DNA of 64,000 nt from Escherichia coli. Its GTDB lineage: Bacteria; Pseudomonadota; Gammaproteobacteria; Enterobacterales; Enterobacteriaceae. This document shows, in pieces, positions 54,284-54,543 of the stretch. Positions within the stretch are counted from its first letter, which is position 1; every line of letters begins with the position of its first letter. A program made the translations under genes and the position numbers. The notes under the pieces are model-generated. The model worked only from the letters and a program-made list of their open reading frames with translations. It did no database searches and was not told where the DNA came from. The stretch lies in NCBI RefSeq assembly GCF_003991155.1, contig NZ_CP031293.1. One strand, given 5' to 3'.

Positions 54284-54315
54284 TTTGTACACCGTCCGGC
54301 ACTCAATCGCCAAAA

Positions 54316-54543
54316 AGAAAAAAGCCAGCAGATAATCACTGCTGGCGTGGCGATTAGCACCAATACTCAGTCACACATGATGTCCGCAAATCAGTAGTCA
54401 GAATGACTCCCCTCCCACTGCATCAGTTCTTCAAGCATAGTTAATCGTTGTGGGACGCTTAACCAACGCAACCAGCACAACTTCGCTGTCGCGGTAAAAT
54501 AGTGCTGATAAAACTGACGCATGGGGCACCTCCTTGCTTCATC
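54316..54543 (-). ncRNA. sgrS: SgrS small regulatory RNA (glucose-phosphate stress), dual-function
   Basis: Minus strand reads GATGAAGCAAGGAGGTGCCCCATGCGTCAG...AGTATTGGTG...GCCAGCAGTGATTATCTGCTGGCTTTTTT, matching SgrS from memory, including the 3' terminator hairpin and U-tract. Confidence 0.85.
54391..54522 (-). CDS. sgrT: SgrT small protein encoded within SgrS
   Basis: 43-codon ORF MRQFYQHYFTATAKLCWLRWLSVPQRLTMLEELMQWEGSHSDY inside the sRNA. Confidence 0.75.
   Translation of the reverse strand: MRQFYQHYFTATAKLCWLRWLSVPQRLTMLEELMQWEGSHSDY

Follow-up and report, generated by a model that had tools for sequence, protein, structure and literature searches.

The closest described counterpart of the locus analysed here is the sgrR-sgrS/sgrT-setA region of Escherichia coli K-12, which is reportedly the locus of the glucose-phosphate stress response (Vanderpool & Gottesman 2004; Sun & Vanderpool 2011). 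According to PMC4509938, which cites Sun & Vanderpool 2011, setA is co-transcribed with sgrS when transcription reads through the sgrS terminator, and this agrees with the co-transcription stated in the original prediction for the window, i.e., the whole 64-kb stretch of E. coli DNA that was analysed. For K-12 SgrS, 88% identity to SgrS of strain CFT073 or O157:H7 has been reported (Horler & Vanderpool 2009, PMC2760817). The setA gene has been attributed to the A/B1 sublineage of E. coli and has been described as 'acquired' (Gonzalez-Alba et al. 2019, PMC6896753). A lineage difference in setA is, therefore, already known from PMC6896753 and from the synteny figure of PMC2760817.

As in K-12, sgrR is divergent from a full-length SgrS with a conserved 5' half in the window, and the base-pairing core of SgrS (CAUCAUGUGUGACUGAGUAUUGGUG), the 43-aa sgrT ORF, and the Rho-independent terminator are shared with K-12 as well. 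In contrast to K-12, setA is not found downstream of sgrS, and identity to K-12 is only 75% over the 3' 114 nt of sgrS. Furthermore, the last eight residues of SgrT are WEGSHSDY instead of WDDRNSES, the terminator has a U6-C-U5 tail where K-12 has U8, LeuD ends with ...FMR* instead of ...FMN*, and the hairpin in the intergenic region of leuD and setA is gone. SgrS of the window belongs to the same variant class as SgrS of CFT073 and O157:H7 (PMC2760817), and B2 and O157 genomes have the same setA-less junction. Unlike O157:H7, which is reported to have lost the start codon of sgrT (PMC2760817), the window keeps this start codon. The window agrees with the description of setA as characteristic of the A/B1 sublineage (PMC6896753), which implies its absence elsewhere. 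In contrast to the acquisition described in that study, outgroup synteny argues for setA being ancestral and for the junction being a shared old deletion.

The leuD-sgrS junction and its two haplotypes

In a K-12-like genome, leuD is followed after 48 bp by setA (1179 bp, convergent with leuD), sgrS/sgrT, and sgrR, which is the order given for K-12 in the original prediction. In the window, leuLABCD is encoded on the plus strand with the Leu leader at 49409-49558 (Rfam), and only 33 bp separate the stop codon of leuD from the 3' end of SgrS (Table 1). This distance leaves no space for a 1179-bp gene. Directly 3' of the sgrS terminator, where the K-12-type sgrS-setA operon encodes a 392-aa MFS sugar efflux transporter, leuD and sgrS are contiguous in the window, joined by the 33-bp spacer that is also found in other setA-less Escherichia. 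Searches with SetA (tblastn) and setA DNA (blastn) from the K-12-like genome gave no match in the whole 64-kb window, the best tblastn hit having an E value of 0.47. Thus, the prediction that setA is missing between sgrS and leuD, and that it is not encoded at another place in the window, was borne out.

The remaining part of the locus has all features of the SgrS family, namely a divergent sgrR, an embedded sgrT ORF, the ptsG-pairing core, and a Rho-independent terminator. SgrS matches the Rfam family RF00534 over model positions 1-232 of 232 with 225.4 bits (E value 2.8e-63), which is well above the gathering score of 37 bits. The ptsG-pairing core CATCATGTGTGACTGAGTATTGGTG is invariant in all eight aligned sequences, and a terminator scan located the terminator hairpin of sgrS at 54346..54324, followed by TTTTTTCTTT. 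In a RefSeq record that is 100% identical to the window, sgrT and sgrR are annotated as intact genes. Together with the full Rfam match and the complete ORFs, this annotation confirms that sgrS, sgrT, and sgrR are intact, as had been expected from the sequence.

Table 1. Coordinates of features at the leuD-sgrS junction and sequence identities of its segments.
Feature	Position	Strand	Description	Basis
leuD	53678..54283	+	complete, 201 aa; TAG at 54281-54283	sequence, ORF list
Spacer of the setA-less junction	54284..54316		33 bp	sequence, alignments
sgrS small RNA	54317..54543	-	full length	RF00534; alignment
Intrinsic terminator of sgrS	54312..54346	-	8-bp stem (6 G-C pairs), 7-nt loop, U6-C-U5	terminator scan, folds
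sgrT	54391..54522	-	43 aa, ATG start, intact	RefSeq annotation, alignment
sgrR	54611..56269	+	552 aa, intact, divergent from sgrS	ORF list; RefSeq annotation
Haplotype-specific zone at the breakpoints	54084..54430			segment identities, alignment
Outer 8-bp inverted repeat enclosing the terminator hairpin	54305..54355		AATCGCCA (54305-54312) / TGGCGATT (54348-54355)	MFE folds, both strands
Last 200 nt of leuD			88.5% identity, window vs K-12-type	
3' 114 nt of sgrS			75% identity to K-12-type; 95.6% to E. albertii, E. whittamii, and E1V33; 86.6% to Citrobacter	
5' half of sgrS and promoter			98.9% identity, window vs K-12-type	

Around the junction, the window and the K-12-type genomes represent two diverged haplotypes. 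The window and the K-12-like genome share ~96-97% identity over the surrounding 30 kb and 91.5-92.6% in the 500-bp windows that hold the junction. According to the alignment, the haplotypes differ in the end of sgrT, the linker, and the loop and tail of the terminator. The C-terminus of SgrT is ...MQWEGSHSDY in the window and ...MQWDDRNSES in the K-12-type. Both this C-terminus and the 3' half of sgrS are specific for the haplotype, with 95.6% identity of the window to the alleles of the three sister taxa without setA compared to 75% to the K-12-type, and the flanks group by haplotype and not by species.

The outer inverted repeat that encloses the terminator hairpin was found by folding of both strands, and it is predicted to form only in transcripts reading through from leu or from sgrS. 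One of its arms is located in the deletion spacer, and the repeat has one mismatch in E. albertii. It could be a trace of junction formation or a product of chance.

Ancestral position of setA and probable origin of the K-12-type allele

For the outgroup survey, contigs from one genome per species were searched with SgrR as query, and SetA was then located in each locus. In all 76 non-Escherichia loci from Enterobacteriaceae, setA is encoded directly beside sgrS with 75-91% amino-acid identity; genera that keep the gene at this place include Citrobacter, Salmonella, Enterobacter, Klebsiella, Raoultella, Kluyvera, Leclercia, Lelliottia, Trabulsiella, Atlantibacter, and Buttiauxella. As setA adjoins sgrS in all of these loci, the gene is ancestral at this site and the setA-less junction is a derived deletion. 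Within the genus Escherichia, setA is absent from the locus in E. albertii, E. whittamii, and Escherichia sp. E1V33 and present in Escherichia sp. MOD1-EC7003. In the locus of Trabulsiella odontotermitis (4591-5653), tblastn splits the setA match into two overlapping segments (query residues 1-86 and 115-392), which suggests that setA may be disrupted in this species.

The 33-bp spacers of four setA-less Escherichia taxa can be aligned base by base, show 2-4 differences, and have the consensus TTTGTAC[A/G]CCG[T/C]CCG(GC)[A/G]CTCAATCG[C/T]CAAAAAG. The spacer takes the place of ~1.26 kb that, in K-12-type genomes, comprise the leuD-proximal hairpin as well as setA and its leader. The common spacer sequence of the setA-less taxa points to one event instead of parallel losses, a claim based on four taxa, with one genome per non-coli species and with E. 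fergusonii, E. marmotae, and E. ruysiae absent from the loci. The junction could also have spread between species by recombination rather than by descent.

The flanks are too diverged for a global alignment with the K-12-type, and the breakpoints were deduced from the C-termini of LeuD and from the sequence that follows the sgrS terminator in Citrobacter. The window shares its LeuD end, ...QPAFMR*, with Citrobacter, Salmonella, and the remaining Escherichia without setA; in the K-12-type, LeuD ends with ...AFMN*. Because leuD keeps the ancestral AFMR* end, it was left untouched by the deletion, and the respective breakpoint is located in the former intergenic region of leuD and setA. At the opposite side, the GCCAAAAAGAAAAA end of the spacer is homologous to the sequence just past the sgrS terminator in Citrobacter. 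When the spacer was searched for remnants of setA by local alignment with ten setA+ loci, the scores were no better than those of shuffled spacers except for this terminator-proximal end, and homology of the ~25-nt spacer core to the setA+ loci was not detected.

The account of an ancestral setA, one ancient deletion of ~1.26 kb inherited across Escherichia, and a K-12-type haplotype that probably arrived by recombination is, as a whole, very probably correct. According to this account, the common ancestor of the Enterobacteriaceae would have had setA beside sgrS. One early deletion would then have removed setA with its leader and the leuD-proximal hairpin, with the 33-bp spacer remaining in their place. 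The resulting junction would have passed by descent to E. albertii, E. whittamii, Escherichia sp. E1V33, and the E. coli lineages outside the setA+ group. The setA+ haplotype, which is the minority state within the genus, would have persisted in another Escherichia lineage, and the K-12-type setA+ haplotype probably entered the A/B1 lineage, or was exchanged with it, by homologous recombination.

Taken literally, 'acquired' (PMC6896753) would mean that setA had never been present at this site in Escherichia and that the A/B1 sublineage gained new accessory DNA horizontally. This would be consistent with the setA-less state being more widespread and more diverse in E. coli and its sister species, with the near-uniformity of the setA+ alleles in E. 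coli (at least 99% identity in 3229 genomes), and with a setA segment in E. coli that is unusually similar to the one in a cryptic Escherichia lineage. However, setA occupies exactly the same position beside sgrS in 76 of 76 non-Escherichia loci. Moreover, setA of E. coli has 76-79% nucleotide identity to the genes of Citrobacter and Salmonella, and it must therefore be seen as an ortholog of the Escherichia lineage and not as a foreign gene recently imported from those genera. A horizontal gain of new DNA is, thus, unlikely and survives only in a modified form, in which A/B1 regained the ancestral allele through homologous replacement, with another Escherichia lineage as the donor.

Such a replacement within the deletion account is in agreement with the comparison of setA+ E. 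coli and Escherichia sp. MOD1-EC7003. The setA-sgrS segments of both share 98-99% identity over ~1.4 kb compared to a background of 93-95%, setA being 98.6% identical overall and the K-12-type sgrS segment 100% identical. This elevated identity to a cryptic Escherichia lineage suggests introgression, and an exchange with the A/B1 lineage in either direction would fit. The chances fall somewhat short of even that the two states represent a long-lived shared polymorphism in Escherichia, with the junction arising near the base of the genus and with setA, together with the distinct SgrS 3' domain and SgrT end, being regained or exchanged by A/B1 from the cryptic lineage. Since setA and the alternative SgrS/SgrT variants are tightly linked, two co-adapted sugar-phosphate stress modules could be circulating in the genus. 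The deletion account refines the published view of an 'acquired' setA in A/B1 to that of an ancestral gene, one old deletion, and a likely allelic replacement instead of an insertion of new DNA.

Frequency of the junction in complete E. coli genomes

The frequency of the junction was determined in 5426 complete E. coli genomes with an 801-bp query (53900-54700), and the junction was classified as contiguous when at least 80% of the query was covered in one piece. A contiguous setA-less junction was found in 2159 genomes (about 40%) with 95.8-100% identity, and the query splits into two separated pieces in the remaining matching genomes (3240). The bands of sequence identity track the type of junction: about 2155 genomes have at least 95% identity compared to 2159 with a contiguous junction, and 3244 genomes have 90-95% compared to 3240 with a split query. 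The setA-less genomes include the B2 strains 536, IHE3034, and LF82 as well as O157 isolates, and the setA+ genomes include K-12 derivatives (C600, NCTC122).

The window itself is 100% identical to E. coli 2016C-3878 (NZ_CP029747.1) over both 53900-54700 and 52000-58000. The 6-kb query (52000-58000) has 95.7-96.7% identity to the K-12, B2, and O157 alleles, and the junction allele of the window has 96-97% identity to B2 alleles and 95.8% to O157 alleles. The gap at setA is an ordinary old lineage difference and not an oddity of this strain. E. coli lineages other than the K-12-like setA+ group all have the setA-less junction as their normal state, as shown for B2 strains and O157.

A relocation of setA to a site outside the 64-kb window in the same genome has to be considered, as the window comprises only ~1.3% of the chromosome. 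However, the setA gene was found in 3241 complete E. coli genomes (3242 places), which compares with 3240 genomes without the contiguous junction, and essentially no genome has both the setA-less junction and setA elsewhere at the sensitivity of megablast, with which the paralogs setB and setC, being separate genes, would be missed. The two classes are complementary, with 2159 junctions and 3241 setA genes adding up to 5400 compared to 5399 genomes with any match, and setA is therefore not relocated in setA-less genomes. A relocation is thus highly improbable, and from these complementary counts we infer that setA is also absent from the rest of the chromosome here. Even less probable, and effectively refuted, is a recent, strain- or clone-specific deletion of setA from a K-12-like ancestor, or an artefact of the assembly, which has nothing more than the bare absence of setA in its favour, because the flanks beside the breakpoints are strongly diverged (75-88% identical to the setA+ allele) and the identical junction is widespread, occurring in 2159 complete genomes and in three other Escherichia species.

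Consequences for the locus and further features of the window

The glucose-phosphate stress circuit of SgrR, SgrS, and SgrT is structurally complete in the window, and only the accessory efflux arm represented by SetA is missing. Read-through of the sgrS terminator, which yields setA mRNA in K-12, would here enter leuD in antisense orientation after 33 nt, as judged from the arrangement of the genes. The hairpin that is located next to leuD in K-12 (GCCCGGTCAAATGACCGGGC, -17.4 kcal/mol) is gone from the window. Transcripts of leu, lacking a hairpin terminator of their own, would meet the sgrS hairpin from the side without a U-tract. A function of the sgrS hairpin as a bidirectional terminator for leu was considered as well; on the plus strand, the hairpin is followed by GUGGCGAUUAG and not by a U-tract, and such a function is not claimed.

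The K-12 sgrS-setA operon, which is the basis of the studies on read-through and co-transcription, represents only ~60% of the sequenced E. coli, and B2 strains, O157, and the sampled sister species do not have it. Strains with the setA-less junction have a glucose-phosphate stress response without SetA and with a different 3' region of SgrS and a different C-terminus of SgrT, and their sgrS and leu operon converge at a distance of 33 bp. The result has little value as a discovery, but it guards against mistaking a normal lineage difference for a deletion event.

Several further differences were observed in the window. An islet of ~1 kb is located between sgrR and the TPP riboswitch/thiB (56270-57300) and contains a 189-aa ORF (56499-57068, minus strand) annotated in RefSeq as the T3SS effector EspY2. 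This islet is present in O157 and absent from B2 genomes and from the K-12-like genome, in which 33 bp lie between sgrR and the riboswitch. Some genomes encode a 'pentapeptide repeat-containing protein' at the same site instead of EspY2. Compared to the K-12-like genome, an insertion of ~1.8 kb with a remnant of an IS630-family transposase is found between yabI and araC (61660-63465), and this insertion encodes two hypothetical proteins with 282 aa (62108-62956, minus strand) and 140 aa (61679-62101, minus strand). For these two proteins and the EspY2 ORF, no Pfam family was found. A transposase gene of IS621 (IS110-like) is located between lpdA and yacH at 2788-3768, with coordinates mapped from the matching RefSeq record.

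Two further peaks of divergence from the K-12-like genome, at 34866-35865 (92.6%, murD/mraY) and at 60616-61115 (93.0%, near thiQ/yabI), stand out from a background of ~97% identity and may be recombination patches. The Rfam family PssrA ('plasmid-encoded Shigella sRNA A') matches with its full model and 102 bits at 27818-27908 (minus strand). This match is chromosomal, which is odd for a family named after plasmids, and it is located at the 3' end of ftsA and the 5' region of ftsZ on the same strand as both genes.
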